The notes under the pieces were generated by a model. The model did no database searches and was not told the origin of the DNA. It worked only from the letters and a program-made list of their open reading frames with translations. Of a stretch of DNA of 64,000 nt, positions 8,718 to 57,980 are shown piece after piece (position 1 is the stretch's first letter; every line of letters starts with the position of its first letter). Source of the stretch: Phoronis australis (Eukaryota; Animalia; Phoronida); assembly GCA_002633005.1 (NCBI GenBank), contig NMRA01000184.1, positions 685,255 through 749,254 of the forward strand, given 5' to 3'. The translations under genes and the position numbers were made by a program.

Positions 8718-9476
8718 CCAGAGAAGTGCTGCCAAAAATCTATATCTCACAAGCTTGCAGAAGTGGCTGGACAGACCGACGCAGCCCGAAGGTTGCGTCG
8801 AGTGAAATGGGCACTATTTTAATTCTCGGCAAATGTTTTCCACAATCGCCTATTTTATAAGCATTTCTGCACGATCAGCCAGAGATGTCAACAATCTTTA
8901 ACGACAGTTTGCACCCTCGGTTTTCGTTGATGTCACGTGACTTCGACTGACGTTGCGATGACGCATGACCACTTCATTTATAAACACCGTCACGTTTCTG
9001 TTTGGGGAGATAACGTGATCGGACACACTAGCGGTGAGTCGCAATTTCTTCGTGTATTTCAAAAGTTGTTTCTGTTTACCAAAAATTCTTGAAGTCAGTG
9101 AGTGAAATGTTAAAACTTCCTGACATCGGGTAGGGAGGTCAACTCATTGGTGCACAGAATAACTATTCAATAGGCTAAGCTTTGAAGATTTAAAATGGAT
9201 TTAAAATTAATTGCCTTCAAGACGTTGCTCACAACGACGCATATCGATGCGATGTTGATTTTTATTTCATTTGCTAAGCACAACCTTGGTATCTTCAGTT
9301 TAAACAAAATGTTAAATTCCCTTTAGGCATACGAACTTTATTAACAGGAAAATGTGTCTTATTTACTAATTCGGCTTTTGTTTAGGTCAAAACGACAATA
9401 TTCCGCTTAGTGCAGGCTAGTGTTCGCTTACCCAGTTAATGTCCGGTCTTTCAGTTAACATTAACTATAAAGGACT

Positions 9477-9632
9477 TAATGCTGTAGTGGGGCGTAGGCG
9501 CACGAAGGCGCAGCCAACCTCCTTTTGGTATTTAAACGTAGCGCCTACGCACCGTAAGTTACGTTCAGTGCTCAAGGTGGTACGGCGAGCTTTGAGCGCC
9601 TACTTACCTCTTATTTTACCACTACAGCACTG
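9477..9632. mobile_element. Small MITE
   Basis: Inverted ends TGCTGTAGTGG (9480-9490) and CCACTACAGCA (9619-9629), with internal GTAGGCGC/GCGCCTAC inversions. Confidence 0.6.
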
Positions 9633-10380
9633 GAAGAACTGCTTTTCACATCGTGCCAGTACTCGCTATTCGGTTTGTTCGGCATAACTCATAACCGCGT
9701 TCTTTTCCCACGAAACTATCGTAATTCGGGCAGATAACCCGTCAACTCAAATCCGCCTTTCATGCACTAAGTCAAGTCTGTGATTTTTAGGTCATGTTTG
9801 CTTTCCGCTGATTGTTGCCTTCCAACAAGAAGCCCGAGTTCACGAACTTCGGTTATACTGTACACAGTTTTGTGTGTTCTAAACTGATTGTACTGAAGAT
9901 ATGTGAAGTTGATTTTTTCACTGTCTCTCATTTTGAATCCAATTACTGTACAACATATGTGACAAGACTTTCTTTTGTGCAGTGAAGAAGGTGCCAAATC
10001 TGTACTTTTACCATGCATGTTTTCTCAAAGAACACCAAACTTGTCTATTTGGCCACGACAATTCATTCACAAATTTGAATGAACACAATTCATTCGGTTG
10101 TAAATTTTGACAATTTCGCGCAAGTCCTCTACAAGTCTACCCTTTACTCGCACTGATTCCTATCGGCTACGCCTTCACAACATTTTATTAAAGGCGAATG
10201 CATTTGGACCCTGTCGTCAGACAGAAGAATCCCGTGCATTCACATTTCTCACCTTCCAATCAAACATGTGGAAAATTCTGTTTTGCTGGTATCTAGCGTT
10301 TTCGGAACGCACCAGAGAACCGCATCGAATGTCTTTAACTTACCAAAATGACGAAAATTCAAACGTTGGAAAGCACAGAA

Positions 10381-10870
10381 TTTTTTGCCAAATTACATAG
10401 GCTTTATTTATCAGCTTGAGTGGGTGACGTTCATTGTGTGGACTACAATTCCTGAATGATTGTTCTTATATAATTTACGCCCGCTTTAAATGGAATTAAT
10501 CCTCTTTTTCCTACATAATCTCGATAACTGGGTGTCCAATGTTCCCGGTTAGTATTATTGAGTTCCTGGGTTCGATTCTTGGTTGGGACAAGCGATTTTT
10601 AAGCTGACAAATAAAGCCTATGTAGTTTGGCGAAAAAAATAAGGTGATAGACTGAGTTTTCGCCAGGTTTACTGTATGGTCTACCATTCCCGAGTGGCTG
10701 AACGCAGCAAGTATGCCAGGAACTGAGTAAAATGCATCGCATGTTCTCGAAATGGTTTCGATAACTCTGTGCTCAGAATGTCCGGTTAGTATTCGGGAGA
10801 TCGTGGGTGCGATTACTACCGGGCAATAGGCGATTTTTTTTTCAAAACTGGCGAATGAACCCTATGCAAT
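10381..10870. repeat. Foldback element with two tRNA-derived (SINE-like) units
   Basis: An inverted repeat of about 37 bp at 10381-10417 and 10601-10638. Two related units at about 10520-10625 and 10760-10870 contain CCGGTTAGTATT...GGTTCGATT (B-box-like) followed by a T-run. Confidence 0.55.
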
Positions 10871-12256
10871 TAGGTAAAAAATACTGGGCTTTCGAAAACG
10901 AACTTTCGTCATTCAGTACTTTGTCATTCCAGTAACCTGTAGTTACCCATCGCCATCGGGCATTGTTTACTGTACTATTCGTATCTTCTAAATTTTGAAG
11001 GCATAATCTAATTGATTCCGGTCTATACCTTTGTGTAGATGCAAGACACGAGTGAGAAAACCTAATGTGATCACGTACTTCGCTTGTACTGCATGAGAAT
11101 ATCTTGGGAAGGCTTGCGTAATCTTGCAGTTTTACGAGTTTCATTGGTTTGCGGAACGAAGCACGGGATTTCCAAGTGATTTGATTGTAACACTTACTGT
11201 TTTCTCTTCGCTTTCACCACCAGCGGATTATCCAAAGAGCAAAAAATACAAATTCTGTGTCATTTTTAAAGGAAGTACTAGAGAACAAATAGAGATGTGT
11301 AATTGTGCAGACCCAAATTGTCGCAACATTTCACATTCAATTTGTTCAAATCGTCAAAGTTTGGGTCAGCTCCAAATTTAATGTCACCATTTGCCCCAAT
11401 TGTCACAACGATTTTTTGTGACAATTTGGGCCTGCACAGTGCAGGTATGAGATTTTTCTAAGAGACAGCGCAGCGTCTAAACCCAGTCCTTGTTTATTGA
11501 GTGCCGAGAACACTGGTGAACGGGGAAACGTGGCGAGTTTAAGTGTGCAAATCCTTGTTTTTAGCGTTTCAAATTGGTTTTGAATTATGCAGATTGTGCG
11601 AATTTTCACAAAGTTTCGAATTTTTCAATAAACAATTCTAGTTTCGATCGACAAAATTAATTCTGACAAAAGTTGGCGGTGTTACGGCCGCGACTAACTT
11701 CATTACTAAAAGTGATGCATGAACGTTATTTGCCAGGATACGATAAACATAAAACGAATGCGGTAAGTTGTGGTCTGAATGTCTCCTGTAGAGGTCACAT
11801 CCTACTTATTCAAGAATTTATAATAATGTTATATTCCACTGGTGATCGCGTGTTGTATAAACACACATATTGCACAAGTCATAGTTCATTAACTGACACA
11901 GGAGTGGGCAATGGAGGAGGTGTAAGGACCCGGGAAGTGGCAGCGTGAAGACTGAAATGTTGCTGAATCGAGTTCCCGCTTGTGTAAATATCGGTTCTTT
12001 CCAAGCCGCAAGTCAAAACCGCGCACATGAAGTTATAAATCTTACTTAATTCTGCTTTGATAGAACTGCACAATCTTCATTTCTTAAAGTACGCAAACAA
12101 AAGTTCTGCGCTAGTCAAACTGTCATATCCGTAATTTGGGAATTTATTGTAAACCGAGTAAAGCGAAAATCCGCAAAAGGGTTCTAGGCGCCGGCTGTTT
12201 TAGAAATTTCCAGCAGTAAATTGGTGGGAGCGAAAATACCACAGCCAAGACTATCG

Positions 12257-12447
12257 CAGACGGAGAGTGACGAACTACCTGCCTCATGTGAATGATAGCA
12301 GAGATGGCAGCTCAAGTCCACGCGTGAGAACATCGATAATTATCCGCTGGCTCATGCAATTGTTCTTGCCTTGAAATGAGCTAACTGTCAACTCCGCTTT
12401 TGATCACTGGAGACAAACAACCGAGCTTCTACGTAGCTCTCCGTCTG
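12257..12447. repeat. Short element bounded by an inverted repeat
   Basis: CAGACGGAGAG(TG)ACG at the left and CGTAGCTCTCCGTCTG at the right. Confidence 0.45.
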
Positions 12448-15400
12448 TGGAGGCCCTTAATGTGAGACAAGTTTCAGTTATAAACTAACTCGTTCAAGCA
12501 GAGAGTTTCTAATTTAGACCACTGGTCTCAACTTGTTCCTCGCTTAGACGAGGACATGTACACTCGGCGCATAAAATGTTACGTCGTGACAAGTCAACTT
12601 CGAAAGCTTTGTTTCAAGCAACAATGAACTGCCAGTCTAACGAGGAATAACACAACGAACGCAGAAATATTCATGATAGTTATAACATATTCCAAAGTCC
12701 AACGATTCGGTTCAGTCTTGAAAAATCTTGAAGGTTACAATATAATCTCAAACAAGAAATATTACAACCTTAAAAGTAACTTTGCGTTGTCCTGTTATTC
12801 CTCATTAAATTATGACCAACACGTAACCTTATTGAACTGTCATTTCCGCTTTTGAAGCCCGAAAACCACCTCCAAATTTGACTTTGAAACAATTTCAGAC
12901 TAGTTTCATAACCAAGTGGTCTAAATCGAAAGTTGCTTTTGTGATGGAAGGTGAGTTTGTACTTGCTGTAACAAAGTGTATCGTTGATAGGACGTGTTTA
13001 TCAAAAAACGTTGACAGTTGTGACAAAAAGGCGAAATATACTTAGCAGGTGTCACTGATTTTTTCGCCTGCGGTTTCTTGACTCGGGGATTTCGCGCGGG
13101 GAATTTTTATCCTCTGTATTCTGACAGATTTGACCAATCTATCCTAAATACACCAACGCCTGAACAAACTGTTAAGCAAACAATTCCATTCCGGTTAGTG
13201 GTATGAGAAGGTGCGATAACCCTCGACCTGCGCTGTAGCGGCTAATATTGACAATGCTATGGCGAACTAATGAAGACCAGTTGGTGCCTCGATCCTGGCA
13301 GTTTCGCAAGCTGAACCGAATTGTTATTTAATACACGAATTTGTTTATTGTGAACTTTGTTATGGGGTGTTGCCAAACAAGTATAACTGGATGAAACCAG
13401 TACTACCATGTTCCGTTCCGCCAAATCAAATTTCACATTTTAGTCGGAAGTTTAACTTGACATCTCAACGCTGCTTCAATGTTTTTATTGATACAAATTT
13501 CGTGCGCGCTTACAAAGCTGACTGTCTGACTAAGTTCACATCATACAAAAAGTCCGCAATTTTACGAACTCCTTGATCAACGTTCTTCAATTTCTAAACA
13601 GAGAAAACTTGCCTTCTGTTCGTTGAAGTCAACAACAACCATTGCATTATGTCCCAAACAATGAAATGGGTCTTTTGAACGCAAGATCCTGTACGAATTA
13701 GTAGTAGACCAACAAAACAAGATTACATAATCTTTTTATGTGCACGAAGGAAATACCGAAACGTTGGTAATTACATGATAGCATTCTTCTCAAAATAGTG
13801 GTAAAAGGCAAATCCAAGTGTAGAAGTGTGTCACGTAACTTAGCAACATATTTGATCGTTTTAAGGAAAAGGGTCTCTCCTTAAAGTATCCACATCAACT
13901 TTCACAATTCACAACCCCAACAACATAATATGATCGCTCAGATGAGGAAATGCTGCGAGGTAATTGTGAATGGAAATTGACGCCCTTTAATGAATGACGC
14001 ATTGTTTTGTGATGGTGTTTGAGCTAAAATAGTACAAGCATTGGAAATGTGGAAACCGAAGTATTAATTTTAAGAGGATTAAATCAGAGCTGACATTTCA
14101 GTAACCCGTGTAACTTTTCCATTTTCGCCTGAGGCGCCTCTTTTTAGGCAGCACTAGCGAAAAAGCTAATTCAGTGACTCCACAATTTTATATTAGGCAA
14201 AGATCAAAATAAAAACAAAGAAAATTTGGAGAAAATCAACAATAAGTTAAAATTGCGTAGAACCTCTTTAATCGATTAATGCATGAAAGAAGTGCCTGTT
14301 GCTAAGTTGCCAGGCCACTTTGTTCAACAGGCCACATTTGATATGTTTGTGTAGCTTTTTATACAAAAAGAATCTCGCATGTTTATTTAAGCAGTGAGGT
14401 GCTGGTTTCAACATTAGTCGGGCGCAGACCAGAAACAACTATGCTATTATTTTTGCCCTTGCATGAAGTTTTCAGAGTTTACTGCAATTAATAACCATTA
14501 CTCTGTTTATATGGCGGGTTGCTTTGAAACTTCATCCTGTTCACAAGCACCAGTTACGTGTCATTTGGCGATCACACAGAGCTTCACGGAAGTTGCAACT
14601 TACGATAACAACACATTATATTCGGGGCTCTAAACCCTGAGTGCTAATCTAACTGTGCTGCGACTGAATGCGCGACCAACGGCAAAGGACTGTCCAAAAA
14701 GTTTCGAAACTTGAAACGTTCGCGAGGTGCGCACTTTTTCCTCGTGAGTGTTGCTGCAACAACTTGCAAAATCTTTCAAGTGAATCTTCCTCGCAAATGT
14801 GTCTCAAACACGTCTCCAACCTTCTCAGTTTAGTTTCTTAGACACAGAAAGTTCCGAGAACATGGAAGGCAACTTCGCGATGTACAAAATTAACTTGGTA
14901 CTGATATTGAAGACAAAGTGAGAATCTGTTGCACCACAAAAATAGTATTTATTATCGCGTGAGTGTAGCACGACATGGTATGCTATCCCCAACGAACTTA
15001 GCCTTTGTTTCGAAAGACTGTCATGATTAAATTATATTTTTTAAACACTGTAGCAGATTCCAACAAGCTTCCGTGGAGTTGTAATTAAGGTATTAGCAAG
15101 TCATACCCGCGACCTGGGTTGAATTCCGTGAACGAAAGAATCTCACTGAGGAAGCTATTTTTTTCGCGTGCTCTAATTGTAATACATGACAACTTGTCGC
15201 ATTGCATTTTCCGATATTCTCATTTTTATGAAACGTACGCCTTGATACTAGCAAAATAGACAGCGTTCGGTGGGCAAAACAACCCCACTGAATAAGCAAA
15301 AGTAAAAACCAAGTGTTGCGCGATTCCTCACGAGCATAACCCATGAAATGGCGGCCTCACTCAGGAGATTGAAATATTGAATAATTGGATGGAATTATAA

Positions 15401-16054
15401 ATTTAGGATAGAATTAACGGTTTCCGTTCCATAAGCGAAAGTTGTCACCGCAAGTGCGTGGCTAATAGCTTGGGTCTACGGAACACAGCCCTGGACTCGT
15501 GTTTTGACGACAACATGACGCATTTGGTTTAATCACAACCTGAAACATCAAATGCATTTTTACTGGCCAAGTATACGGTTGTGTTTTTGAAGGCTAAGGG
15601 TATATTTCAGCTTAACAAATAGCGACGTTTATAGCGTGTCGATTCTACTAGGAGCCAATCACGTTCTACAACACACGATTTGCATTATATTTTGAAAGTT
15701 TATTGGAGATGCGCTACTTGTTTTTTCAATTATTTTGTGAAAATTGCTAAGCCTATCCAAAGATTCAACGGTCAGCGACTAAACATCAGAGAATTACTAG
15801 CGAAGTCAAAAAATCTGGTCTCCCACAGAGGGCGACTGCATGGCTTAGCAGTAGGCAGCACAGGCGCACGACAATATTTCAGGTTCAAAGCAAATAGCGG
15901 CCTTATAAAGTAGGAACAATGATAGCATGGCTTTCATCCCACTGGCAGTTTTAGCTCGCATTGGCAACTTCTAACGCATTCCGCATCGTAGACGCGTAGC
16001 ATTGCATATTCCCGGCTGGGCCACGATGTCGCTACATGTCACTATAATAAAAAA

Positions 16055-16084
16055 TTACTTACTTACTTACTTACTTACTTACTT
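16055..16084. repeat. (TTAC)n microsatellite
   Basis: Directly visible. Confidence 0.9.
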
Positions 16085-16255
16085 TACAAGTGCTAGTATT
16101 CACAATGCAACTACAGACGTATGAACACGTCTCAATTCTTAACTTGACAATATTGAATTCAACTGTACCTTTATCTTACATTTTGCAAATGAAACACATG
16201 TTTCTATTTTCAGACGCTACTTTTCCTGACCCAGCCATAGTCTACAGGCAGAGAA

Positions 16256-16379
16256 ATGAAGTTGGCCGTTGCTCTTGCAGTTTTCGTTGCGTTTGTCATC
16301 TGCATCGAAGCCACACGTCGTGGCGGAAGACGTCCCAACTTTCCTTCATGCGTTGAGTCAGCTAGCGCCTGCAACGAAA
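16256..16379 (+). CDS. Secreted 10-Cys cationic protein (prokineticin/colipase-fold-like), coding exon 1
   Basis: Acceptor TTTTCAG at 16213 and ATG at 16256. Translates as MKLAVALAVFVAFVICIEA (signal peptide) then TRRGGRRPNFPSCVESASACNE. Ends in phase 1 at a GC donor, A|GCAAGT. Confidence 0.8.
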
Positions 16380-16644
16380 GCAAGTAGATTTCCGGTTTTC
16401 CCTTTTCAAATAGGTTCGAGCACTTGGGGAATACGTACTTGTCGTTGAAACGAAATACTGAATCAAACCATCTTCAGAGTAGTTTGTTGATGTCATCATT
16501 ACACTTCACGTGCTCATTAACATACTCATTACGTAGGCCTAGCTATGTTCCAAGTCACTTCATGTAAAACAGGGCACCTATTTAATTGGTCACTACATCT
16601 TGCTTAGTTTCCTCTTGCTATGTATGAGCACTTTTGTCTTCCAG

Positions 16645-16755
16645 ATTCGTGTTGTGTTCCGATTCCAGAACGCTATCAGAGCATCATAGGTTACGCCAAA
16701 GCCTGCTTGCCAAAGACAGAGCGTCGTTGTGCCGACTCTTGTCAATGTCCCGAAG
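16645..16755 (+). CDS. Secreted 10-Cys cationic protein, coding exon 2
   Basis: Acceptor CTTTTGTCTTCCAG and donor G|GTATTG. 111 nt, phase 1 to phase 1. Translates as (N)SCCVPIPERYQSIIGYAKACLPKTERRCADSCQCPE. Confidence 0.85.
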
Positions 16756-18483
16756 GTATTGTGTCCAAGGGAGTGGCTGATGCATGTAGCTATTCTTAAG
16801 AATAGGTGGAACGTTTTTAGTCATTTTTTATATGCGCGTGCATGTAATGAGGCCTATCTACCTACATATGACTACCTGAATTAAGTTACTAACAGCTATA
16901 TCCGGAATTAGGAGCATGCATAACTTTAGCAAAAACAAAGGAGTAACCTTGTACGCTCGCGCGCGCGCACACACGCACACACACACAAACACTCACGCAC
17001 AGGGGCGTCCTGCGTCTGCCTCTCCATTTTATTGGCCGCTTGATGGAATTTTCTTGAAATTTTACACTTTGCAGTCATGATGTTTATAACATGGAGTGAG
17101 CGCACTGGTACGTTTACTAATCTGCACCAGCTCTCACCCTCCGGGACAATTTTAGTTTTTCGCTTCAACTTCTATAAGTACTTAGTTCATTGATTGATTT
17201 CTTCATTGACTGATTTTCCTGAAATTTGACAAATGTGTTTTTATCCAGGAGGTGATGACACCGGTCCGTTTTCGACGACTCCGACGTGTTGTGCAGTGTT
17301 ATTATTTTATGTCTACTTAAATAATTATTTCGCTATGGTCGACAGTACAAGTTTCGGAAAGAGTCTCATCACTTTTTCAGAAAAAACACTGGTAGCGTTT
17401 TGTTTTTCCAAGAGCCACCAAAAGGTTACTTTCGGAAATCACCGTATCTTTACTATCATGACATTACTAAATGGGTCAAGTGGCAAATCAACGATTTGTG
17501 ACTATTTTCCGAAAGTAATTGCAGAATTACTGCTTGCCTGAGAAAATGATTTATGCGTTAGAAAGAGCTCCCCTTTGTTAACAGGGTGTAGTCAATTTCT
17601 TTTTTCTCATGTCGCACATTAATGGCGTAATCGTGGTTTGAAAATGTTGTCGCTATTAAAAATTTCCAAACTCACACATGATGTATAAATGGTGCTGAAA
17701 TCAAATATATTCTCATGTACGCTTCAGCAACTGGGAGTCTTCGACGAATATACCGTCCTTCTTTCATGGGGCTTGTAGGTGGCGCTGAACACCTGTCCAC
17801 CAAAGACCTGTTCGCCGTCTGGCGACAGTAAATAGCGGTAGACATAAAAATTTGACGCTATCGGAAATGCCTAAGAAACGGTGTCTTTTTGGTGGTAAAC
17901 CACGTCATATTTATTGCACGTTAATATTAAATTGAAGACATTTTTACATGCAGATATTCCAAGCCTCACTGCGCCAATAGGCGATTTAAAATTCAGCTTT
18001 TTGTCTACTTTAATGAAGTGTTTCGCTAATTGAGGATATTGGCCCATGGCCTACTACCAATACTACTTTTAGCACTGCTACTAGTAGTACTACTTCTCGA
18101 AGTACTACTTTTAAGCACTAGTGACAACATTTATCAATGTCAATCATAATCGTAACAACACGGTAAAGGAATATTGTATAGGCACTTTAAATAACAAACG
18201 TTTCACTTTGGTTTGGTCTTACAGGAGACAAACGCGGCTATTTCCCGAGCCCTCTACCGTAGGGGCTCTTTTAGTGTGAAAGGACATAAAACTTCGACCA
18301 ACAAAAAAGTACTTATTACTTCTTTCATCCCATTCTAGCCTGCTGGAGCTCCCTCGTTCAAACATCATTTCTTACGTTTGTGTATTATTTAAGGCGTACT
18401 GCATTTGACGACTCCCATTGTTTGCAAGTCATCAAACTAGTGAAATGGACCTTTGAAGGAATTTATGGTGTTCGTGATTTCAG

Positions 18484-18632
18484 GTAAATTCTGTTGGATG
18501 AAGGAAGGACGCCGTGGCGGGAGGAGACGCGGACATGGTGCCGCCAGACGTCCCAGACAGTTCCCTGGTAAATGCAAGTTGCCAGGACAAGAAAGAGGTT
18601 CGGGCTCTTGGCTCGGACAGGCACCGGAGTAA
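18484..18632 (+). CDS. Secreted 10-Cys cationic protein, coding exon 3
   Basis: Acceptor GATTTCAG, phase 1. Translates as (G)KFCWMKEGRRGGRRRGHGAARRPRQFPGKCKLPGQERGSGSWLGQAPE*. This supplies Cys 9 and Cys 10. ATTAAA at 18713-18718. Confidence 0.8.
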
Positions 18633-19338
18633 AACCACGTGACAATTTTAAGGTTGCGTTTAACACGAGAGAGCGCATGCGTCGTCACCGGAAGGATTAT
18701 CCTGAAGGTTACATTAAATTCTTGTATTGTAGGAAATCAAACGTAAAAAGCTAAAGCATATTACACGTGTTCTCATTTTCAGTATTTTTTTATCTTTCTT
18801 TATAAATTAGTTGCGTGTGTGAATTATAGTTACTATAACATAACACATCGTTTGTCTATGTTGCATGTCTGCTTGTTTTGAAATATATCGCCGGGAGTAA
18901 CCTTACATTGAGTTTTCTCTTGTTTCATTCCGTTTTCTTCTCCTTACGACATGAAAAATGACTGATAACGTCAATAGTTCTTTCTCGCAATTCCTCTTGA
19001 CCGTATAGCAATTGCTCTCTGACGCATAAAGTTTTTATTGGTCTGTCTGCCAAAACCGGGAGCTTTTCATACAGCTCTTTTTGACTTGCATGGGAACGAA
19101 AGTCGTGTTTCGTTTAAGGTTTTTGACCCACGTTGTTTTGTAGAGAAACCTGGTTTGGAATTCGGTTTTAGCTCGCTGATATAAAGAAGAAAACATCTCT
19201 ATTGATAACAGGCAAGAAAATTGCCTAACGAATGAACTCAGGCAGCTTATTCGTTATTGTGTTAAAACCGAAGATTTCAAGGGTATTGATCAGTTTTATA
19301 TTTTAAATGTTTTGTTTAAAAAACCAAAACGATACTTT

Positions 19339-19400: not shown

Positions 19401-21285
19401 TATCAAAAATTTTCTGACCTGCTTGTATAAAAAAGGGAATTAGATTGCACCGAACCGGGTACACTTAGGGTTATAAGTAGCCAACCATTAAGCTATCAAA
19501 TTTCACTTCGTCGAAAATTTTTACTCAGTTAGTTCCCAACTGGAATGAAATCGTCGATCAGAAGGCATTGTTCTTATTTATTGATAGATTTTGCAAAGAT
19601 TTGTTTTCAATTAAACTCTACATTTCATAAGATGTGAATTTGGGAACTGTTATACATAAAAGTAAACTACGAAAACGTTATACAGAAAGTTCCAAACTCA
19701 ATGTACTGACATCTGTTACGGACGCTTTAGCTGTAAAGCAAACAAAAAATGACAAATCATCTGGTCCCCCACGGCTTTTCAAGTAAGTTTTATAAGTTTT
19801 TCTTGCAAGAAATTTCCTTCATTCGTTTAATAATAGCTTTGGTTAAACGAACTTTAGCACTTAACTTAAACCAAGGTAACTAATGTCGAGAGTATATCAT
19901 CCACATAGTGCCCTATTTTACTATCTAACAACAGCTAAAAAATTGAGAATTGACCTATCGCCAGGATTTTGGCTGACTGCTAACTGGCCAATCAGAACGC
20001 AGCAGTCTTGACACACCTTCGTCTGCGTTTCGAAGCCGCCATTTTACCCGACAAATAACACGTTGTGGGGGTAAAGTTTATGCTAATCTATAGCTCAAGA
20101 AATTGTACGATCAGAATAATGAAACAGTGTTGCTATGGCGTGTGTAATTCCGACAGCCATTATGCAGCTCGATAAGAATATTCCGTAACTTTTTAGGTAT
20201 TCCCTAAGCCTAAAAGTGAATTCGAAATGTGTGAACGACAGACTATCTCTGTATACGGCCACACGAGTAACTGAACTTGACAATGTTGTTGCTTGATTAC
20301 TCGAAGGTTAAATACGAACATCTTTGTTCCAAGATACTTACTTTTCATTTTGGTGGCTATAGTATTCTCTTATCTGATTTTGACTCAGGAGTTTCACTCG
20401 TCTAACCGCCTTTGTCTCGACACTTGCTGAATCCCAGCATTAGCCCTAGCGGTAGTCCCCGGAATTGTTGTTTAACATTTTTCATTTCTTCCGAATGGAC
20501 ATCATTTTGTTTCGTAGCTAAAGCAAAGATGGCTAAAGTGAGGTACATTTTTGTTATTACACCTGTAGGCCGGCGTTCACCTCAACTTCTCTCAAAATTG
20601 GCAGATTCGATCGGCACAGGAGGGGCACTGGATCACTGCTGACACGAAAAATTAGAGCATTTAAATTATTTTTTGTCGAGAACCTCTAGTATACATTTCG
20701 CCTGTAGTGTTAGAAAGAGCTCATTTTGTAGTTGTTCAAACATGATACTTGGATTTATGAAGCTTTAAAAAAGAATTTGAGTTCTTTTGTACTTAAAATA
20801 CCCACATTCTGCTAATACACCGGACTTGTCATCTTTTGTAACCATACCATAGCTTAGTGATCATGCTACGTTTAAAAGTAACTGAAAGCTACCTTTCCGC
20901 AATGAAACTGGCGGGGGTGATGCTGCAGCTTGTCAAGTGGTGTGTAAAATTGCTCTCAACAGTACATCAATTTTTTTGCAAACGAACGTACAGGAGCAGG
21001 CAGAAAATTGCAGAGAGGGGAAATTTGTGTCAGAGACTTTGGTGAACGTGTTTTGAGGTTTTAGATACTTTCACCAGATAGAGAAAGTTTTCTGTTTGTA
21101 GTGGGGCTTGTCCTCCTATGACTGATATCGCTGTGTTCAGTGGCAACTCATTGACCAACATTACTGCTATCTGAACTAGACCCCTGCTGTTGGTGGTAAA
21201 AGGTCAACATTCAAAACCACCATGGATGACTGAAAGGAATCTAGGTTAGTCACTCAGTCCCTTGCTGTGTGTTATACTGGTCAAG

Positions 21286-21887: not shown

Positions 21888-22092
21888 TTTGCGACTTCTA
21901 ATGGCTAGCCAGAGGGCGAAGACGGACCGAACGAGATGGACTGGAATTCTTTCAGTTGTATATATTTTTTGTTTCGTAGGTGTGAGTGTGTCGGAGTGAA
22001 TGGTTTCTATATTCACGTGATCACTGTTCATTTTTTTGTTGGAAGGTTTTGTAGTGGTTTATCTAATTATATGTTTTGTGGTTTCCCAATTG

Positions 22093-23824
22093 ATGACAAT
22101 GGTTAGCTTAAACTTAATATCATTAAATTGCAGGGGTTTAAATCGTGAATTGAAAAGGCAGCATTTGTTTTCTTTTTTGAGGAAGGAGGGGGTTGATATT
22201 GCCTTTTTACAAGAAACATACAGTACAATAACTAACATTAATAAATGGGGACATGAGTGGGGAAGTAGAATCTATGCTGCTCATGGGTCAGAGCACAGCA
22301 GGGGTGTTGCCATCATGTTTAACAACAATTTAAATGTTACAGTTAAAAGATGTATCGAAGATCCTGATGGTCGTTATTTGTGCATTGACGCAGATGTGGA
22401 TGATTATAATTATATTTTCATAGACGTTTATTTTCCAAATGAAAATAGATCTCAATTAATGTTTTTGGACAAGTTAAATAATACCTTCCAAAGATATGTA
22501 AATAACGATAATATTTTTGTGCTGGTGATTTTAATTGCCCATCAGGAAAAATTGATAAACAAGGAATAAGAGATACTAGAGATAAACAAACAGTCATTGT
22601 AAGCTTAAATGTTTTGCAGAGTCTTTCCATCTATTGTTTGGAGATTTCAGAATCCAGACAAAAAACAATATACATGGCATAATAATTCCTACAGATTACA
22701 AAGCAGAATTGACTACTGGTTGGTTTCAAAGAACCTCAAAGATCACATCAATTATTTCATTAAAAGTTTTTCGGATCACTCGGTAGTCAAACTTCATTGC
22801 TCACTTAAAGATTCTATACCGAGAGGGCATGGATTATGGAAAATTAATAATAGTCTTTTCGAAGATTAAGAATATGTAACTAACTTAAAAAGAATTATAA
22901 ATACCTGTGTTGAAGAGTATGTTTATCTACGTAATAAACATACCAAATGGGAAATGGTTAAAATGAAAATAAGGGAATATACTATGAGACACTCGAAAAG
23001 AAAAAAGAAATTGGAAAATGCTGAGGAAGAGAAATTGTTTGAAATTATCAACAACTTGACAGGAGAACTAAATGATGGTAGAAATGATGATGGAATTGTG
23101 CAGAATTTGGAAAGAGCAAAGTCCAATTTGCAACGTATACAAACTCATAGAGTACGTGGACGAATGTTAAGGAGTAAAGCCTAGTTAATTGAGGAAGGGG
23201 TGAATAGCCCAAATGTTTTTGCCTCATTGAAGAAAAGAAATTTTAAAAAAGTGTATAAGTATCCTTGAAAATAAAGATGGCCACTAGATAAGAGATCATG
23301 CTGAAATCAGGTCAGAATTGACTCATTATTACTCCTCTGTTTTCACAGATTGTCAAATGGAAACACCATCCACTATACCAAATCTTTTTAATGGCGCCAG
23401 AGATGTAGCATCCAGTGATTTTGAAGAACTGGATGAACCTTTAAGAGAGGGTGAATTTTATGAAGTTTTAAAAACTTGTAAAAATAAGTCTCCAGGAAAT
23501 GACGGGCTAACTTACGAATTTTATATCAAATGTTTCTGGCATGAGGTTAAAAACTCCTTACTTAAAGCTTTTGAATTTAGTTTTTCAGTGCGGGAATTAT
23601 CTACGTCACAGAGGCAAGGAGCAATAAAGCTCCTACCCAAGTCAAAAGATGCGTTCGAGCTCCAGTCCTTGGATAATATCGCCAATATCGCTATTGAATA
23701 CCGATTATAAATTACTTACAAAAGTTCTTACAGCCCGTATAAATAACATCATGGGAAAACTGGTTCACCCAGGTCAAACAGCTGTTAAAGGACGATATAT
23801 AGGATACAATATGCGTATCATTCA

Positions 23825-23861
<37 letters not shown>

Positions 23862-25380
23862 TTATTACATGTTCTCAGCCGTCATCCGCCTTATCTGGAG
23901 CCCTCGTGGATTTTGGAGAATTATCACCCTCGGGGCTAACGCCCCTCGGGCTAATGCCCCTCGGGCCATAATTCTCCAAAATCCACTCGGGCTCTAGTAA
24001 ACGGGAGATAACGACTGAGAACATGTAATAATCTATTCATACTACATACTAAACGAGAATCGATCTACCTTTTCTCGACTCTCCACGGCTTTGTAACTAC
24101 TTTCTATGTCAGAGGCCGGGGTCGGAGGTCGTGACCTTTTAAGCAAAGCCGGGCTATTTTTGTCAAATAATGGTTTTACTCAAATCCAATTGAAAACTTA
24201 AATATAATAGAAATAAATTGAATTTATAAATTAAGGTTTACCAACTATTATAGCTTAAAACACGTTTTTTTCATGCTAAGCTTCGACCGGGAAATTATCG
24301 TCTTCTAAAGTAGGTCACCACAGATAACTGAATATAATTCTCAAGTCAAAGATCCCGACGACACAATACCCGCATTCAAACTGGAGATCGGTGATTTACA
24401 AGTAAGAGGACATGAGAGAAAAATTTCACTGAATTAAGATATCATTTTTATGGAAATTATGTGGCTTATTTTTCGTAGCGTATAAGTACAGTACAATGCG
24501 GTTTTTTGAAAATGGGATTATTGCGCGTGCTCATTTAAGTATTCTATTTTCACTCTTGATGACGTCAGTCGCTGCGTGGTGTAGTGGTAAAGTCGGCGAC
24601 AAGCAACTCCAAGGTTCGACTCCGTCATCAGTTTCCCGCCAAAACGTTATCTCACTAGTGAGATAACTTTATGGCTTATTACACGGATGTATCTGCCATT
24701 TGACGCTAATATTGTGGTATAAAATTTCTTATACAAATGTTACTGATGGTCAAGGACACATTTTATTTTTGGACTTTTGCAAGGCGTATGATACAATAAA
24801 ATGGGACTTTATTTTTCAAGCTTTGATAGCTTTTAATTTTGGACAGGGTTTTACACGATGGGTAGAAATAATCTATAACAAACCAACAGCTTGTGTTGTC
24901 AATAATGGTTTTACAACAGGTTATTTTCGTAAGACAGGGTGATTCATTGTCAGGTCCATTATTTTGCCTAGTTGTTGGAGTTATGTCCAATTATATACGA
25001 AAGTGTAATTTAATTAAAGGCATAAGTGTTGAGAAAACTGAAGTTAAAATTCTCTAGTACGCAGATGACACTACCTTATTTCTTCATGACAAAAATTCTG
25101 GCATGAATTGTCTCAAATTTTTAGAATATTTTGGTTTACTCTCTGGTCTCCAGCTAAATATTAAGAAATGTGAATGGTTACATATTTGGGTCGAGAAAAA
25201 GTGTTGTGAACCACTTTATGGCTTCAAGTGGACTGGCAAACCAATCAAGAGTCTGGGAATATTTTTTAGTCATAACAAAAAAGAAAATGATTTCTTAAAT
25301 CTTGAACACAAAATTAAGTCCTTTAAAAAGTCTCTTGATATCTGGAAAAGTCGCAATATTTCATTGTTAGGAAGGATCAA
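22093..25380 (+). mobile_element. L1/Tx1-clade LINE ORF2 (APE endonuclease + reverse transcriptase), decayed, interrupted and 3'-truncated
   Basis: Motifs SLNCRGL, FLQETY, SRIDYWLVS, SDH, KSPGNDGL, PISLLNTDYKLL, LDFCKAYDTI, and YADD at 25058-25069. Many stops and frameshifts. Confidence 0.93.
23828..24722. mobile_element. Non-autonomous element inserted in the LINE RT region next to a (TA)n tract
   Basis: The LINE reading stops at RIIQDI and resumes at ISYT. The insert begins with (TA)n and a hairpin of about 175 bp (TAGATTATTACATGTTCTCAG...CTGAGAACATGTAATAATCTA). It also holds a tRNA-like A/B-box segment at about 24570-24630 and the palindrome GTTATCTCACTAGTGAGATAAC. Confidence 0.75.
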
Positions 25381-26318
25381 TGAATTTTAAACCAGAAAAA
25401 AGCGTTGACCTCACCTTCTCCAAATCTATTAATGCTCTCTTCCTTGTTGACCGTCTTATGACCTTAAACTTAATGATGAAATCATTCCTAGAAAATAGTC
25501 GCACAGACATCTGGGTATACTGTTAGATGAAAAACTCTCATTCACCCCTCACGTTCGGGAGCTCGTACAAAAAACTCAGGAACTAATTAACCCACTTTTA
25601 AGCTTAAAAGCTTGTCTCTCGTCATCTGAATTCTACACATTTAAAAGTTTTGTTCAAGTCCTTTGTGCTTCCACACATTGATTATTGTGATATTATATAT
25701 CAGTCTGCCAATACGGGTGCACTCCAACATTTGGAGAAGTTACAATATCAAGCCGCGTTACTCATAACCGGAGCTTACAGGGGATCCAATAGTGTTAAGG
25801 TTTTGATTAGTCTCAAGTGGCCCAAACTGTCTACTCGACGCAATCTTCACATGACCACATTTGCTTTCAAGGTAATAAACAATGTCAACAACGTGTCTGT
25901 CAAAAAAATATTTGATCTATATATAAGACAAGGCCATCGTAGTGATTTGAGATCCTCCACCCCATATGCAATTCCTCCGTCGTTCAGTCAGGCATTCAGA
26001 AGGTCTACAGTCATGATGTGCATCAACAACTGGAATTCTCTTCCAGTCTCTGTTAAGGAAAGCAACTCTTTTACGAGTATAAAAAATAATTTTAGAACTG
26101 TTTTTCATAATTTTGATAACTCAACACCCTTGACTCAATTCTCCCTTACCCGCGATAACGAAATAGCATTGTACAGATCAAGATGTGGCCTTTTCCTCAA
26201 CTCTGACAAGTTCAGGCACAACTTTAGTAATGTATCTCCAAACTGTAAATGTGGTGACCATCAATCTTATCCTCATATTTTCTTCAAATGTCCCCTCATC
26301 GAATCCCTGAGAGACTCN
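25381..26318 (+). mobile_element. 3' part of a CR1/L2-like LINE ORF2
   Basis: Motifs HRHLGILLDEKLSFTPHV, FVLPHIDYCDIIY, LEKLQYQAALLITGA, LKWPKLSTRR and a terminal CxC...HIFFKCP. Runs up to the N at 26319. Confidence 0.85.
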
Positions 26319-26702
26319 TGATACAAGACAAATGCAGCATGACCAAAGCATTCGCCCAGACAAAAATCATATAAATTGACCGAATTAAAGTGTATAATTG
26401 TCTATATCCTGACAATATATGTAATTGAGAGTGTTCACAGTGTCCAAAATGAATTAGGCATACCCAAAACTATAACATTTGACCCCAAGATCGCTAAAAT
26501 CGGTTGGGTAGATACTGATTTACAAGGAAAATCATTATCACGAACACTGGACGGCGGCCATCTTGAAAAATGGCCGCCATCTTGGTTTTTCAGTTGGCTA
26601 GTCGGACAGATTTTTTAAGTATGCTATTATGAGTCATCATGGAAAATTTGGTGCTTGTATCATCATTTGCACAATTCTGGTGCATATTTGCACTTATCAG
26701 TA

Positions 26703-29147: not shown

Positions 29148-31046
29148 ATGCGTCTGTGTTTTAGAGTCGATGCCTTGTTTCTCCTACTTGCTTTGGTGGG
29201 ATTATCTTTTGCTGATGAAGTGGCCGACTTAGAAAATATCGTCAGTGAGTTTTGGACATGGCGACTTCGTGACGATCCTGAATTTGCGACCCAAAGTGGA
29301 ATTCACGATTTTGACGATAAGCTTAGGTCATACGACTATGGACAGTTTCAAGTACGAAAGGAGAAATGCGAACTGCTTTTGGGGAAATTGAGAAGAATTG
29401 ACACCAGTAAACTTCCAAGTTCTTCTAAGCTTTCGTTTGACGTTTTGGAAGACAATCTTATGGTCTTCATCGACGGATTCCAATGGCGAAACTATGGGAA
29501 CCTTAATCCGATTAATTTTCTCGAGGGAATTCATATGAATATGGATTATTTTGTGTCGCATATGGACTTCAAGAACAAGGTAGACTACGACTTTTATTTG
29601 AAGAGACTGCGTGCATTGCCAACTCAGGTATCTCAAATAATCAGCCTCATGGAACGAGCGATACAGGAGGGAACAACTAACCATAACGTATCCATTCTTA
29701 GTGTGCCTTCTCAGATTGACTCGATGATCAATAGGAGCACTGAGGATTTAACCGCTTACAAGCCATTTAAAGATACACTTACCAACGTCACTTACATAAA
29801 CAACACAGTCAAACAGGAACTTAGAAACCAGGCTAAAACCGTTTTATCCACTATGGTTGTACCTTCTTTTCAAAACCTTTCTCGGTTTATACGGGATCAA
29901 TACATTCCTAAATGCAGAAATACATACGGAGTCGGAGGTCTTCCAAGAGGACAACAATACTACAAAGCTTGTTTAAAATGGCATTTGTCCACAGACATGA
30001 CACCCGAAGAAGTTCATCAGAAGGGACACGATGAAGTAAAACGCCTAGAAGAAGAAATGCTGAAAATAGCAAGAAGAAATGGATTCACAGGCACAACGTT
30101 GGCGGAGTTTTTCGGTATTTTAAGAAACGATTCGAGATTTTACAGAAACTCGTCACAAGAGTTACTGGATATGTACAATGAAATTATTTTCCAGAGAATT
30201 AAACCGCAGTTGCCAAAACTTTTTAACGACATTCCAAATTACCCTCTTGAGGTGAAGCCCATGGAGTTTGACGGTCCTGGTGGATCATATTCTCCCGCCG
30301 CAGAGGACGGTTCACGACCTGGAATATTTTGGGTTAACTTGTTAAACCCTGAGAAACGGGCAACGTTCGATATGGCTTCTTTGTCGCTTCACGAAGCCGA
30401 CCCAGGGCATCACATGCAGATAAGCTACATGATACGAGAAAAGAATCCGTCTTTCCGTAAATATTTGGACCTCAGCAAATATTTTGCATGTCCTTTCCAC
30501 TTCCCGTTTTTCACTGCCTATATCGAAGGATGGGCGCTATACGCGGAAGATCTCGGAATTGAGATGGGAAGTTACGTTGACGACTATGAGCTTTTCGGCA
30601 AGTACTCGTCGGAAATGTTTCGCGCGTGTCGCCTTGTAGTCGATACTGGATTGCACGCAAAGGGTTGGTCACGTGACCGGGCTGTAAATTTCATGGTGGA
30701 ACATACCTTTGACCTGAGATCGCAACTGGAAATAGAGATCGATAGATACATCACGTGGCCAGGACAGGCATGCGCGTACAAGATAGGTCAATTAAAATTT
30801 CAAGAATTGCGAAGCAAAGCCAAGAACAACCTCGGAGAAGCATTTGACGTCGCTGAGTTTCATGATGTCGTTTTGAGAATTGGAGCAGTGCCTTTGAGAA
30901 TTTTGGAACGGCGCGTCGACGAGTGGATTCAAAATAAGAAAGTATCGACAACGACGAAACCTACATCAAACGCTCTTATGACCCAGCCAATTTACTGGAC
31001 TTTAATGGTTGCACTATTCTGCAATTTATACACCACGTATTTTTGA
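29148..31046 (+). CDS. DUF885-family protein (putative Zn metallopeptidase), secreted, possibly GPI-anchored, single coding exon
   Basis: 632-aa uninterrupted ORF from ATG 29148. N-terminal signal peptide LFLLLALVGLSFA. Family motifs PEFATxxG, HEADPGHHMQ, EGWALYAE, RACRLVVDTGLH, EIDRYITWPGQACAYKIG and FHDVVL. Ends in an S/T spacer and hydrophobic tail. Confidence 0.92.
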   Translation: MRLCFRVDALFLLLALVGLSFADEVADLENIVSEFWTWRLRDDPEFATQSGIHDFDDKLRSYDYGQFQVRKEKCELLLGKLRRIDTSKLPSSSKLSFDVLEDNLMVFIDGFQWRNYGNLNPINFLEGIHMNMDYFVSHMDFKNKVDYDFYLKRLRALPTQVSQIISLMERAIQEGTTNHNVSILSVPSQIDSMINRSTEDLTAYKPFKDTLTNVTYINNTVKQELRNQAKTVLSTMVVPSFQNLSRFIRDQYIPKCRNTYGVGGLPRGQQYYKACLKWHLSTDMTPEEVHQKGHDEVKRLEEEMLKIARRNGFTGTTLAEFFGILRNDSRFYRNSSQELLDMYNEIIFQRIKPQLPKLFNDIPNYPLEVKPMEFDGPGGSYSPAAEDGSRPGIFWVNLLNPEKRATFDMASLSLHEADPGHHMQISYMIREKNPSFRKYLDLSKYFACPFHFPFFTAYIEGWALYAEDLGIEMGSYVDDYELFGKYSSEMFRACRLVVDTGLHAKGWSRDRAVNFMVEHTFDLRSQLEIEIDRYITWPGQACAYKIGQLKFQELRSKAKNNLGEAFDVAEFHDVVLRIGAVPLRILERRVDEWIQNKKVSTTTKPTSNALMTQPIYWTLMVALFCNLYTTYF

Positions 31047-36961: not shown

Positions 36962-38527
36962 GAGAGGCTTAAATCTGAGAGAACAGTTGTGGGCGAGAAG
37001 ACGAAAAGCATTGATCGTATTTGTGATTAGTAAAATTTTGGTGGATCTTAATGAAGGCAAAATGGTTTAACAACAAGTTTTTAGAATGACCGAGAAGACT
37101 GAAAAGACGTCGAATCGTCTAATTATCTCTTGCAAATTTTGTTTTTAGGGCTTAGAACTGCATAATCCTGTATGTAATAAAATGTTGGCCTCTGAGTCAT
37201 TATGGTCTTTGCAGACCAAGCCTCGGTCACATTCTGAATCTAAACACGACATACGGTATTTTAATACCTCGGTGAAAGTCACTATTATTGTGTATCAATG
37301 CAATTCGTTCCACCACCACTTGAGTTTGCACAACTCGGCGAAAATGCACAGCTCCGACAGATTGTCAAACAGACTGCAGTACATTCCAAAAATTAGCATT
37401 TGTACATAATGTTTGCATTTTTACTTTTGCAACGGGGTTCCAACAGCTACATGCCACATGAAATTAATTGTAACTATCTATGCTTTTTATTTAGGAAATT
37501 ACGATGAGCCAAAACATAATAACAAAGTAAACGACAACAATAAAATTCTTATTACTCATAAACTAATCATTCACCATTTCAAATCTACATGATCCTCTCA
37601 ACTATAGTCTGTATCGTCATAGCATCTCTGTGGTTATTCCCGTTGTTTTCACTCGAGATCAAATCTATAGCACTCGTAGACTAGATTTTCCCTCATCTTC
37701 GATACATATTTAGGTAAAGTTAAAGTTAACTTCGGAAAACGATTCTTTTAGAACAAAGCTGGTAATCAATCGGATACTCTTGATCTTCACATTTATCTTT
37801 GTTACAGGCTAAACCAGTTTTAGGCGTGTTTTATGATATTAATGTTGACAAGTTGTTATCATTTCTTTTTTTATTTCCTATTTCTTCTTTTCTTTTTTAA
37901 TTCTGATATTTAGATTTATGTTTATACATGTTTATATTTCTTTTTCAATGTGTATGTGTTAAGCTTGTAGTTTTTATCCAGTGTACTAAATATTTATATC
38001 ACTAGGGATATTTTGCCGCGCATAAATTCCTCGTGGGTTTAAATGCCTTTGCAGAATCAATCGCCTTCTTAAATTCTTACTCAACTTGTGAATACATTTG
38101 AAGTACTTTAACCTTGAGGATCCAATACACCCACCTTGTTTCAGAAAGTGTCTTTTGATCTAATCTATTGAACGTTATCAAAAGTGATTTCTCGGCTTGG
38201 GAATTCAGAAATAGCAGTTCATTGTTTGTTGCTTCAGAACGAGCTCACCAGACAGTTTATGCGCCTAACGCAATATGGAAAGAAGAGGCTAGTTCCTTGA
38301 CGGAGCGCTAGATGGAGTTAATTTTACATTTTCGGGAGCGGTGTTGGCTTCTGCAGTGGTGTTTCACTTGCTGGCAAGTCTAGTGACAGGCTGGTTTGCT
38401 TTGCGGATCGGAAGATGGATTTTCTGCATGGGTGGACTGCTCCTGTTCGGCACGGGCATGATTTTAGTAAGTGACGAAACTGGGTCATCCTAGTACTATA
38501 GCGCCTGCCTTGGAATTCATTCATTAA

Positions 38528-40240
38528 AGGAGAATGCCACCCAAAAAACAACCTGTTTTATATCAGTTTAGACCGAGTAGTTCTACTCGACAACTGCACG
38601 TTCGGTTGCGTTACCTGACTCCTGAGGGCAGACGGAGGTGTTGAAATTATCCAATGACGTCATTGGTTTCACACGCAGTCTGTTCAGAAGTTCACAACAC
38701 GGGTTTTTCACTTGAATTCATCGTTTAACACCAATAAATCACCAAACTTCGATGCAAAACCCTTAAAGATACACCGAGCTAAAAACGTGTTGTTTTATTT
38801 CGCTATTACGGATTTATTCATTTGGTATTTGGACACACCGTAGCCTACAAAGGTCGGCAAGCCAATTTACCAAGGTCCGTAGCAGGAGTTTGGGGTCTGT
38901 TCGGAGATAAATTCGAAGTATTATTCCGTGAAATACAGACAAGAGAACCTAGATCTGTGTTGTTTAGACTTGTGATTTTTTGAGTTCTAAACACACAAAC
39001 CGCTTGTTATCCCGGCCAGTGGCTCGGAACCCGATCAGGCCCGTCGCGGCCGGACTGACTCGTTATCCCGCCTGGGCCTGAGTGGCTCGGAACCCTATCA
39101 GGCCCGTCGCGGCCGCCGGGACTGGCACGAACATAAACCAGCTTGAGTTGGAAACTAAGCCTCCAGTCACAAAAAGACTATAATAGTGAGCCAAAGAAAT
39201 AATGTGCATGTATCTATTTTTGTTAATTGGCCACGAAAATCTACTTACTTGCCGGGGGCCGCGATGTCGGGTTTCCCTTCCACAGACCGTCAAGGCAAAG
39301 GTTGTACAGTAACAATGATTTGAATAATGTATTTGTATTTCTAAATAAAGATTCCCCTAACATGTGACCATAGCATATAAAATCGAGTAATTGTTTCACA
39401 ACAGCTTTCTGTCAGCAAACACTGAATTAACATGCGCTCAGACGGCCTCGGTGCCCGGTCAATTACCTTTGTTGCCGGCATCAAAAGCCGGTAACGCAGT
39501 GGTTTATTCATTGCTGGCTTCTCAAAACATTTGCACTCACGAGCACTCCAAGGCATTACCAATTGTATCTAATGAGACAGACTTTGTTTCAGTTTTATAT
39601 AAGCATTGGTTAGGATGAGAATAATACATTTTGAAACAAAACGCAGAATAATAAACGTTTACTAATAAACGGCAACTCGCCCCGCGCCAATCCCGACTTA
39701 GTCAAGAGCTCAGGCGACGAAGACTTCACGGGTCGGATCGTTAGTTTTCACAGGCTATCAGTTCGAACCGGATTACACTGATCAAGAAATATACAGAAGC
39801 GCCGTGAACATGCACAGGCAACGAAACGTATTGATAGTTCTTTGGTAAGCCGAAATTCGTAAGAGAAATCACTGTCGACGAAATGCCGGCCTCAGACACG
39901 GAGATGTTTCACGGCCTCATACTTGCTATTAACAGCCTATCTTTCATTCTTCACTACCGCGAGCCACTTCCTAAGCATTTTGGACTCTCGAGGAAGACGA
40001 AAAAACGATATAATCGCTTTCTTCGCAGCTTCATAGTTCGGACAGGCGGGAACGATGCACTGCAATATAGCGGCATTCACTCAACAGACGAACCACTGAC
40101 GTCGCTGCGTCGTTTCTCACCTTCCTCACAGGTTAACGTGACACCTCTAGGCAAGGTGAGGTCGACTGTATAAGAGGAGATGTGGATATAGACCGATTAA
40201 GACGGTAAAAAAGACTAATTAAATCGGGTGACATTCTCCT
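38528..40240. mobile_element. Kolobok-like non-autonomous DNA transposon, both ends present
   Basis: TTAA|AGGAGAATGCCACCC at the left and GGGTGACATTCTCCT|TTAA at the right: a 15-bp TIR (14/15 match) with TTAA TSD. Internal tandem repeat of about 57 bp at 39006-39123. A second copy starts at 56515. Confidence 0.85.
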
Positions 40241-48656: not shown

Positions 48657-49365
48657 CACAGGCGTCCTCAGCTTCTGATCGTCCACAATACACTGCAAGG
48701 TACAGTATAACACTCCCGACTAGGAATTCCACGGGTGCTTCACTTCAGCCGTCCATAGTAAACACAAAACTTAATAAATTTACACAAAACAGAGATTCAA
48801 CAAACCATGAAGAATTGTTCTTTCTCCCAACACCATTCACGGTGTCCTGCTTCACCCAGTTCGCAAGAAATTCGCGGTCAAAGCACAAAAATCTTCCCAA
48901 AAAGCCCGTCGTGAGAAACTCCTTTGTAAATCGAAGGTCAAGGACGATTATTACGGAATTATCCGATAAGTTACGGATGAACGGCGCAGTTGCCAATTTG
49001 TTACGGAAAGTTACGAAATCGTTACAATCGGCAATTGCCGTTCATCCGTAACTCATCGGATATTTCCGTATCGTCCTTGACCTTCAATTTACAAAGGAGT
49101 TTCTCCGGACGGGCTTTTTGGGAAGATTTTTGTGCTTTGACCGCGAATTTCTTGCTAACTGGGTAAAGCAGGACACCGTGAATGGTGTTGGGAGAAAGAA
49201 CAATTCCTCATGGTTTTTTGAACCTCTGTTTTGTGTACATTTATTGCGTTTTGTGTTTGTTATGGACGGCTGAAGTGAAACACCTGTGGAATTTCTAGTC
49301 GGGAGTGTCATCCTTGTAGTACTATATAGTGTATTGTGGACGATCAGAAGCTGAGGACGCCTGTG
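48657..49365. mobile_element. 709-bp almost fully palindromic foldback MITE
   Basis: Arms of about 340 bp are reverse complements (CACAGGCGTCCTCAGCTTCTGATCGTCCACAATACACT at the left, AGTGTATTGTGGACGATCAGAAGCTGAGGACGCCTGTG at the right). Flanks GTCTGCTT / GTCTGTTC look like a degenerate 8-bp TSD. Confidence 0.9.
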
Positions 49366-56513: not shown

Positions 56514-56514
56514 C

Positions 56515-57979: not shown

Positions 57980-57980
57980 N

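Follow-up and report, generated by a model that had tools for sequence, protein, structure and literature searches.

A 64-kb window of the Phoronis australis genome (contig NMRA01000184.1; the window is the whole stretch of 64,000 nucleotides (nt) that was analysed) was found to harbour, on its forward strand, a spliced gene for a small cysteine-rich protein with two arginine-rich arms. Joining of 16256-16379, 16645-16755 and 18484-18632 yields an open frame of 384 nt which encodes 127 residues and a stop codon, the very product named by the initial annotation. One of the coding introns has a GC donor, and the gene model therefore needed an independent test. The RNA evidence comprised three stranded raw-read runs of one study (approximately 18 to 19 hundredths of each run were sampled) and one run of a second study, all from one organism. 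Both of the proposed coding junctions were present in all three stranded runs, 16379>16645 (GC..AG) with 1365, 1205 and 3487 reads and 16755>18484 (GT..AG) with 1173, 880 and 2576 reads, and a single contig from the run of the second study contained both of them. Alternative joints at the coding splice sites had at most five reads, the strand of the reads was that expected of a + strand gene, and read depth within introns was about one hundredth of that of exons. No joint skipping exon 3 was seen among the joints listed in the read mapping.

The number of exons had been underestimated. The gene was annotated with three exons, but it has four, the first being a non-coding exon in the 5' untranslated region (UTR). 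Its joint 9033>16214 was spanned by 22, 9 and 59 reads, unaligned read ends at 16213 (408, 392 and 1230 reads) could be placed at 9020-9032, and read 5' ends cluster at 9014-9015. The resulting 5' UTR of 62 nt lacks an ATG and has two stops in frame, which makes 16256 the first start codon. At the other end, molecules begin at 18895/18897, placing the transcript 3' end near 18897 and giving an mRNA of about 0.7 kb. The gene is thus real, intact, spliced and strongly expressed. Its absence from the track of open reading frames (ORFs) was also verified: no ORF of at least 90 residues covers the coding exons in their frame, and the gene escapes ORF-based scans because of its GC-AG intron and short exons.

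Expression level is high, with 538, 521 and 1409 mapped reads per million records on the mRNA of about 0.7 kb, a minority of which come from an unrelated repeat near 20,000. Short interspersed repeats lie at 9480-9632, 12570-12620, 17774-17824 and 19981-20065 and draw divergent reads of both strands from other transcripts. About half of the RNA reads carried the variant 18505 A>G, which replaces Glu with Gly in the Cys9-Cys10 loop. The TATA box is located 30-35 bases upstream of the read 5' ends at 9014/9015. Just upstream of it there are three half-sites of the cAMP response element (CRE) type and a palindromic E-box, against expectations of 0.5 and 0.02, respectively, for DNA of that length; the palindrome GTCACGTGAC is an E-box of the CLEAR/MiT type. 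Coordinates of all features of the gene are listed in Table 1.

Table 1. Features of the four-exon gene and of its predicted product (positions in the 64-kb window)
Feature	Position	Strand	Remark
Proximal promoter: palindromic E-box GTCACGTGAC (8932), three CRE-type half-sites (8948, 8959, 8988), TATAAA (8979-8984)	8932..8992	+	motif function inferred
Exon 1, non-coding	9014..9033	+	joint to 16214, read ends 9014-9015
Intron 1, 7180 nt, GT..AG	9034..16213	+	
Exon 2: 42 nt of UTR, start codon 16256, signal peptide (predicted), basic N-terminal tail, Cys1-Cys2	16214..16379	+	
Predicted signal peptide of 19 residues	16256..16312	+	hydropathy; cleavage site predicted by the -3/-1 rule
N-terminal tail, residues 20-31, net +4, first RRGGRR	16313..16348	+	
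Intron 2, 265 nt, GC..AG, phase 1, three codons past Cys2	16380..16644	+	
Exon 3, 111 nt, phase 1-1, Cys3-Cys8	16645..16755	+	
Intron 3, 1728 nt, GT..AG, phase 1, three codons past Cys8	16756..18483	+	
Exon 4: Cys9, basic loop, Cys10, tail, stop 18630-18632, 3' UTR to about 18897	18484..18897	+	
Cys9-Cys10 loop, residues 83-108, net +9, second RRGGRR, G+dibasic sites, one XBBXBX motif	18495..18572	+	
GSG in C-terminal tail, residues 117-119	18597..18605	+	

The protein begins with a hydrophobic stretch (residues 3-17, by hydropathy) and has a small residue at position 19, from which the -3/-1 rule for signal peptide cleavage sites predicts the same 19-residue signal peptide as was originally proposed; it is likely to be removed and the product secreted. 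An eleventh cysteine (residue 16) lies inside the predicted signal peptide. The ten mature cysteines occupy positions 32, 39, 44, 45, 62, 70, 74, 76, 82 and 109, and their spacing of 6-4-0-16-7-3-1-5-26 agrees with that given before. The mature chain of 108 residues has an isoelectric point of 9.8, 22 arginines and lysines and a net charge of about +12. This charge sits in the N-terminal tail and in the polycationic 26-residue loop between Cys9 and Cys10, each of which contains one of the two RRGGRR copies noted before, while the cysteine core and the C-terminal tail are nearly neutral. Since local matches as good as the RRGGRR pair arose in 29 of 3000 shuffles, or 138 of 3000 recodings at the DNA level (a comparison chosen post hoc), the repeat is modest evidence. 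One XBBXBX motif and a glycine followed by a dibasic pair at three places are present, no N-glycosylation site was found, and the tail GSG resembles a glycosaminoglycan attachment site. The suggested release of cationic peptides at dibasic sites is unlikely to matter, as the pieces would be two to five residues long and, with the predicted disulfides, a nicked two-chain protein would be left.

The cysteine order C-C-CC-C-C-CxC-x5-C-C is that of the colipase fold (double DDH), and a link to prokineticins and astakines had been drawn on this ground. Motifs were counted by eye in the 21 sequences listed under prokineticin/astakine in the PMC8557429 supplement (Thiel et al. 2021), and parts of the third supplementary file of De Oliveira et al. 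2019 (PMC6425005) served as a second comparison set. At the level of motifs, the link held. The Phoronis australis protein resembles the members of this spiralian family in its predicted signal peptide, in its single ten-cysteine domain without AVIT, and in the positions of Cys3 and Cys7, which are exactly those of the family. It also possesses G-x-C10, present in all 17 family sequences that reach C10, C8-xx-G-xx-C9 (as part of CxC-xxG-xxC; 12 of 21), CxxNxCC (6 of 21) and the GSG tail, which was found in 7 of 21 sequences, all nemertean, and in three Lingula sequences of the second set. In the nemertean and Lingula prokineticin-related proteins the tail GSG is preceded by acidic residues. 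A long last loop occurs in some members and comprises 40 residues in the Phoronis member. Seven of the 21 sequences carry G-K-R in the Cys4-Cys5 loop; the Phoronis australis protein has a G-R-R in the corresponding loop of the second half, so that both have glycine plus a dibasic pair in a hairpin loop, but here it lies between Cys9 and Cys10. It further differs in being strongly basic.

Three features speak against this relationship. The Cys5-Cys6 segment has 9 residues in all 21 sequences and 7 here, the Cys6-Cys7 finger has 7-22 residues in all 21 and only 3 here (the very short C6-C7 loop that had been pointed out is therefore real), and the intron positions are unlike those of vertebrate prokineticins, where, according to PMC8877203, introns precede Cys1 and separate Cys6 from Cys7. 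Because the two spacing features fail, the protein was not filed as a plain family member. Nevertheless, judging from the shared motifs, it probably diverged from within the spiralian prokineticin/astakine-related family and lost the Cys6-Cys7 finger. As the family is described as widespread in spiralians and often expanded, with 35 transcripts in one monoplacophoran (PMC6425005), one more divergent member would be no great surprise. Six probe motifs found no matching protein among the listed sequences of either supplement, which does not prove absence.

Features of other colipase-type groups were also looked for in the protein. The N-terminal AVIT(G) of vertebrate prokineticins is absent, as had been noted; this was taken as unusual, although it is normal for the non-vertebrate members treated in PMC8398477 and PMC9756803. 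The K/R-RFP-K/R signature that precedes Cys1 in ambulacrarians and Xenoturbella is absent as well; the residues ahead of Cys1 offer no more than a basic stretch and F-P. With PK1, PK2, PK2L, Bv8 and MIT1 of the AVIT family, the protein shares the cysteine order and a polybasic loop, which in PK2L is a heparin-binding insert of 21 residues; AVIT and intron positions differ, and the basic stretch of PK2L lies between Cys6 and Cys7, in the loop that is missing here, instead of in the last loop. MIT-like atracotoxins, CsTx-20/21/22 and the octocoral U-GRTX-Esi14-18 are likewise AVIT-less ten-cysteine proteins of colipase type, some of them highly expressed. Unlike the cationic protein described here, the Cupiennius peptides (CsTx) are reported as neutral to anionic (PMC6468893). 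Dickkopf CRD2 (cysteine-rich domain 2) has the same ten-cysteine colipase order, but protostome Dickkopfs carry an extra N-terminal cysteine-rich domain, and no second domain of this kind (CRD1 + CRD2) is present in our protein.

The colipase fold is described as a head-to-tail duplication of the DDH (10.1101/485722), with disulfides paired 1-4, 2-5, 3-7, 6-9 and 8-10 (PMC9918498). Neither half of the protein matched the strict DDH consensus CX5-9CX2[G/P]X2CX6-19C (as given in PMC6468893); the second half fits if the last loop may have 26 residues, and the first one if Asn is allowed in the turn. Without the finger, Cys6 and Cys8 enclose five residues, within the 4-6 residues of simple knottin-type loops (10.1101/485722), and the usual pairing therefore looks feasible. 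We infer that the protein very probably adopts a colipase-type fold with these five disulfides, and it is predicted to form two disulfide-tied hairpins. Macins, TIL, EB, WAP, granulin, antistasin, hirudin and CS-alpha-beta defensins were dropped on cysteine spacing, and prohormone-3-related sequences of the PMC8557429 supplement were dropped because of their other cysteine pattern. On the other side, spider SF22 has five disulfides in a similar topology and is not homologous (10.1101/485722), which means that a ten-cysteine pattern may hide another fold. The middle exon (36 residues) was also folded alone and gave a hairpin and a short helix (predicted local distance difference test, pLDDT, 74; predicted template modelling score, pTM, 0.39). 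This model matched nothing in Foldseek or VIA-align, a result of little weight for a fragment.

Sequence searches, which used single exons of 36-48 residues only, yielded no homologue. None of the three exons matched Pfam; in a collection of 5.8 billion proteins, the middle exon with four flanking intron-encoded residues found no homologue and the last exon had 59 candidates, none of them scoring; HMMER against 1.84 billion representatives gave no match, nor did the PDB sequences; and 603 pattern matches in metagenome contigs were all unconfirmed. A translated search and a cysteine-pattern scan of the window revealed no second copy of the gene. These blanks rule out close relatives in the searched collections and little more: for exons this short, the lack of homologues is weak evidence either way.

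The two coding introns are equivalent in position. Both are in phase 1, three codons past Cys2 and Cys8, at the turn residue of each half and 111 nt apart; for the second intron, the matched site is one of about 249 possible positions (the test was chosen after seeing the data). Such a layout would result from an intragenic duplication that carried one intron along. This allows for an origin other than as an offshoot of the prokineticin-related family, in which a gene for one four-cysteine hairpin underwent its own tandem duplication and arrived at the ten-cysteine framework convergently. Besides the matched introns and their difference from vertebrate prokineticin genes, the near-equal spacing of both halves fits this origin, as does the fact that a transcript skipping the middle exon would stay in frame and retain four cysteines. 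The halves are, on the other hand, no more alike than expected by chance (946 of 3000 free shuffles and 649 of 3000 with cysteines fixed), which speaks against a recent duplication; moreover, Cys3 and Cys7 stand at the family positions and the C-terminal motifs match the second half of the family. We regard independent origin as unlikely. Equally doubtful is the bolder idea that the gene represents a minimal two-fold symmetric colipase fold, with an intron at the same turn in each hairpin, and has been turned into a polycationic antimicrobial scaffold; it would then either preserve or independently repeat the duplication within one gene that is presumed to have made the fold. Nothing usable on intron positions of invertebrate astakine or colipase-like genes was retrieved in the literature search. 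The octocoral exon 2 loss reported to remove six of ten cysteines (PMC11896702) fits the layout of this gene or that of vertebrates, and was not used as support.

As to function, for which the initial annotation gave an open list, the traits that distinguish the protein are its abundance, the loss of the finger and the two arginine-rich arms. By analogy, we favour a cationic effector of surface defence that binds microbes or sulfated glycans (i.e. polyanions), to which we assign a probability of roughly 0.4. An epithelium, gland or coelomic cell would secrete the protein in large amounts; once it is oxidatively folded, its protease-resistant core would present two flexible arginine-rich arms, and these would bind bacterial envelopes as well as mucus or matrix glycans. 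It might thereby restrict or shape surface microbes in the manner of Hydra NDA-1. Convertases may nick the Cys9-Cys10 loop at G-R-R, tuning charge without releasing a large peptide; the cut chains would stay tied by the predicted Cys6-Cys9 and Cys8-Cys10 bonds. NDA-1 (Augustin et al. 2017, PMC5614986), compared here by description and with no claim of homology, is portrayed as a secreted, cationic, lineage-restricted protein with ten cysteines, a colipase-like model and no orthologue elsewhere, directed towards the mucus, with minimum inhibitory concentrations of 0.4-0.9 uM on several bacteria and inactivity on others. It differs in being neuronal, in a C-terminal piece of 38 residues thought to be removed, and in its measured antibacterial activity. 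This precedent had been overlooked in the initial annotation, along with exon 1, the shortened C5-C6 linker and the equivalent intron positions. Basic inserts are also known to confer heparin affinity on prokineticins (PMC8877203).

A defensive role nevertheless has points to answer. The activity of NDA-1 was ascribed, speculatively, to a hydrophobic pocket (PMC5614986). Colipase-fold relatives act as lipase cofactors, as ligands of receptors, as cytokines of haemocytes and in venoms, and one inhibits trypsin (as described in PMC9918498, PMC8398477, PMC9756803, PMC8877203, PMC11896702 and PMC6468893), and with so many unrelated roles the fold does not fix function. Being rich in Gly and Arg with few hydrophobic residues, the basic arms are less amphipathic than typical membrane-lytic peptides.

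The strongest competitor, itself unlikely, is a glycan-tethered astakine-like cytokine or growth factor, whose basic arms would be held on heparan sulfate near the source while a receptor other than a GPCR (G protein-coupled receptor) relays the signal of the core to blood-forming or immune cells. Astakines without AVIT raise haemocyte production in crayfish, shrimp and oyster, as reported in PMC8398477 and PMC9756803, the PK2 basic insert binds heparin (PMC8877203), and an XBBXBX motif is at hand. Classical GPCR signalling is weakened by the description of protostomes as devoid of prokineticin receptors (PMC8557429). Against such a cytokine stand the finger, long in astakines and absent here, and the lack of a match to astakines in the single-exon searches; the transcript level is also above that usual for cytokines. 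Somewhat less likely still is a structural, adhesive or mineral-associated matrix protein (of mucus, tube, shell, chaeta or egg coat) with Arg/Gly-rich arms cross-linking polyanions. High expression, lineage restriction, Arg/Gly richness and lack of a catalytic motif would suit it, and so would a lophotrochozoan host, from a group rich in such secretions; but the protein is small and non-repetitive, with one Tyr only and no acidic tract, and its gene is a single copy in the 64-kb window.

Two further roles are less probable again, and equally so. A toxin-like secretion, defensive or predatory, acting on other animals is suggested by AVIT-less colipase-fold proteins that are abundant in octocoral nematocysts (429-1806 transcripts per million, PMC11896702) and occur in spider venoms (PMC6468893), though those papers name no targets for the octocoral and spider peptides. 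Moreover, no paralogue cluster was seen in 64 kb, and the tree of the neighbouring DUF885 protein (see below) does not group the host with the two nemerteans. A processed neuropeptide or prohormone, with G-R-R cuts giving an amidated two-chain hormone, would agree with glycine plus dibasic residues at three places, with G-K-R in the Cys4-Cys5 loop of spiralian relatives and with the CRE-type promoter sites, but not with the very high transcript level, the peptides of two to five residues that would be released, or the lack of a known protostome receptor in the account of PMC8557429. A protease inhibitor or another role is very improbable.

Elsewhere in the window, several genes and repeats were detected. 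A single-exon gene at 29148-31046 (+) encodes a 632-residue DUF885 protein with a hydrophobic N-terminus (likely a signal peptide). Of 7998 candidates that were scored, 70 proved to be relatives at E <=1e-150, those named being from molluscs, Lingula, nemerteans and an annelid; identity across lophotrochozoans was 39-48% (47-48% for the best). In a midpoint-rooted tree of 27 rows picked from 66 of suitable length, this DUF885 protein fell on the side that holds Owenia, Lingula and two nemerteans, separate from every named mollusc row (100/99), and had no named sister. Taken alone, this placement indicates that the host is likely a lophotrochozoan outside the molluscs. At 41716-43572 and 51195-53096 (+) lie two paralogues, each of a single exon, that share 47% identity across some 560 residues; their TPR repeats, TIR domain and hydrophobic C-terminal segment form a TPR-TIR-membrane anchor layout, and they are possibly innate immune sensors. 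Three neighbour proteins had no exact-sequence match in the protein collection. A broken element resembling a long interspersed nuclear element occupies 22021-26321 (+), with an endonuclease domain followed by pieces in several frames that, by eye, read as reverse transcriptase. A direct duplicate of 878 nt (55636-56513 and 57981-58857, 98% identity) is possibly an artefact of assembly, as it begins directly behind an N at 57980. A self-inverted stretch of 700 nt at 48657-49365 (88%) and a dispersed 1.3-kb repeat pair at 38524-39816 and 56511-57813 (81%) are likely transposon relics.

Taken together, the gene encodes an uncatalogued variant of a known scaffold. For now, the protein is another orphan among cysteine-rich secreted proteins; its lack of a finger, its matched introns and its parallel with NDA-1 lift it above routine. 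No receptor or function is known for most spiralian prokineticin-related proteins. An abundant, finger-less and strongly cationic variant would help to test what the colipase scaffold can do without, and whether the antibacterial use of the fold, reported for Hydra NDA-1, recurs in bilaterians. The matched introns, finally, offer a simple genomic test of the origin of the fold by duplication of one hairpin.

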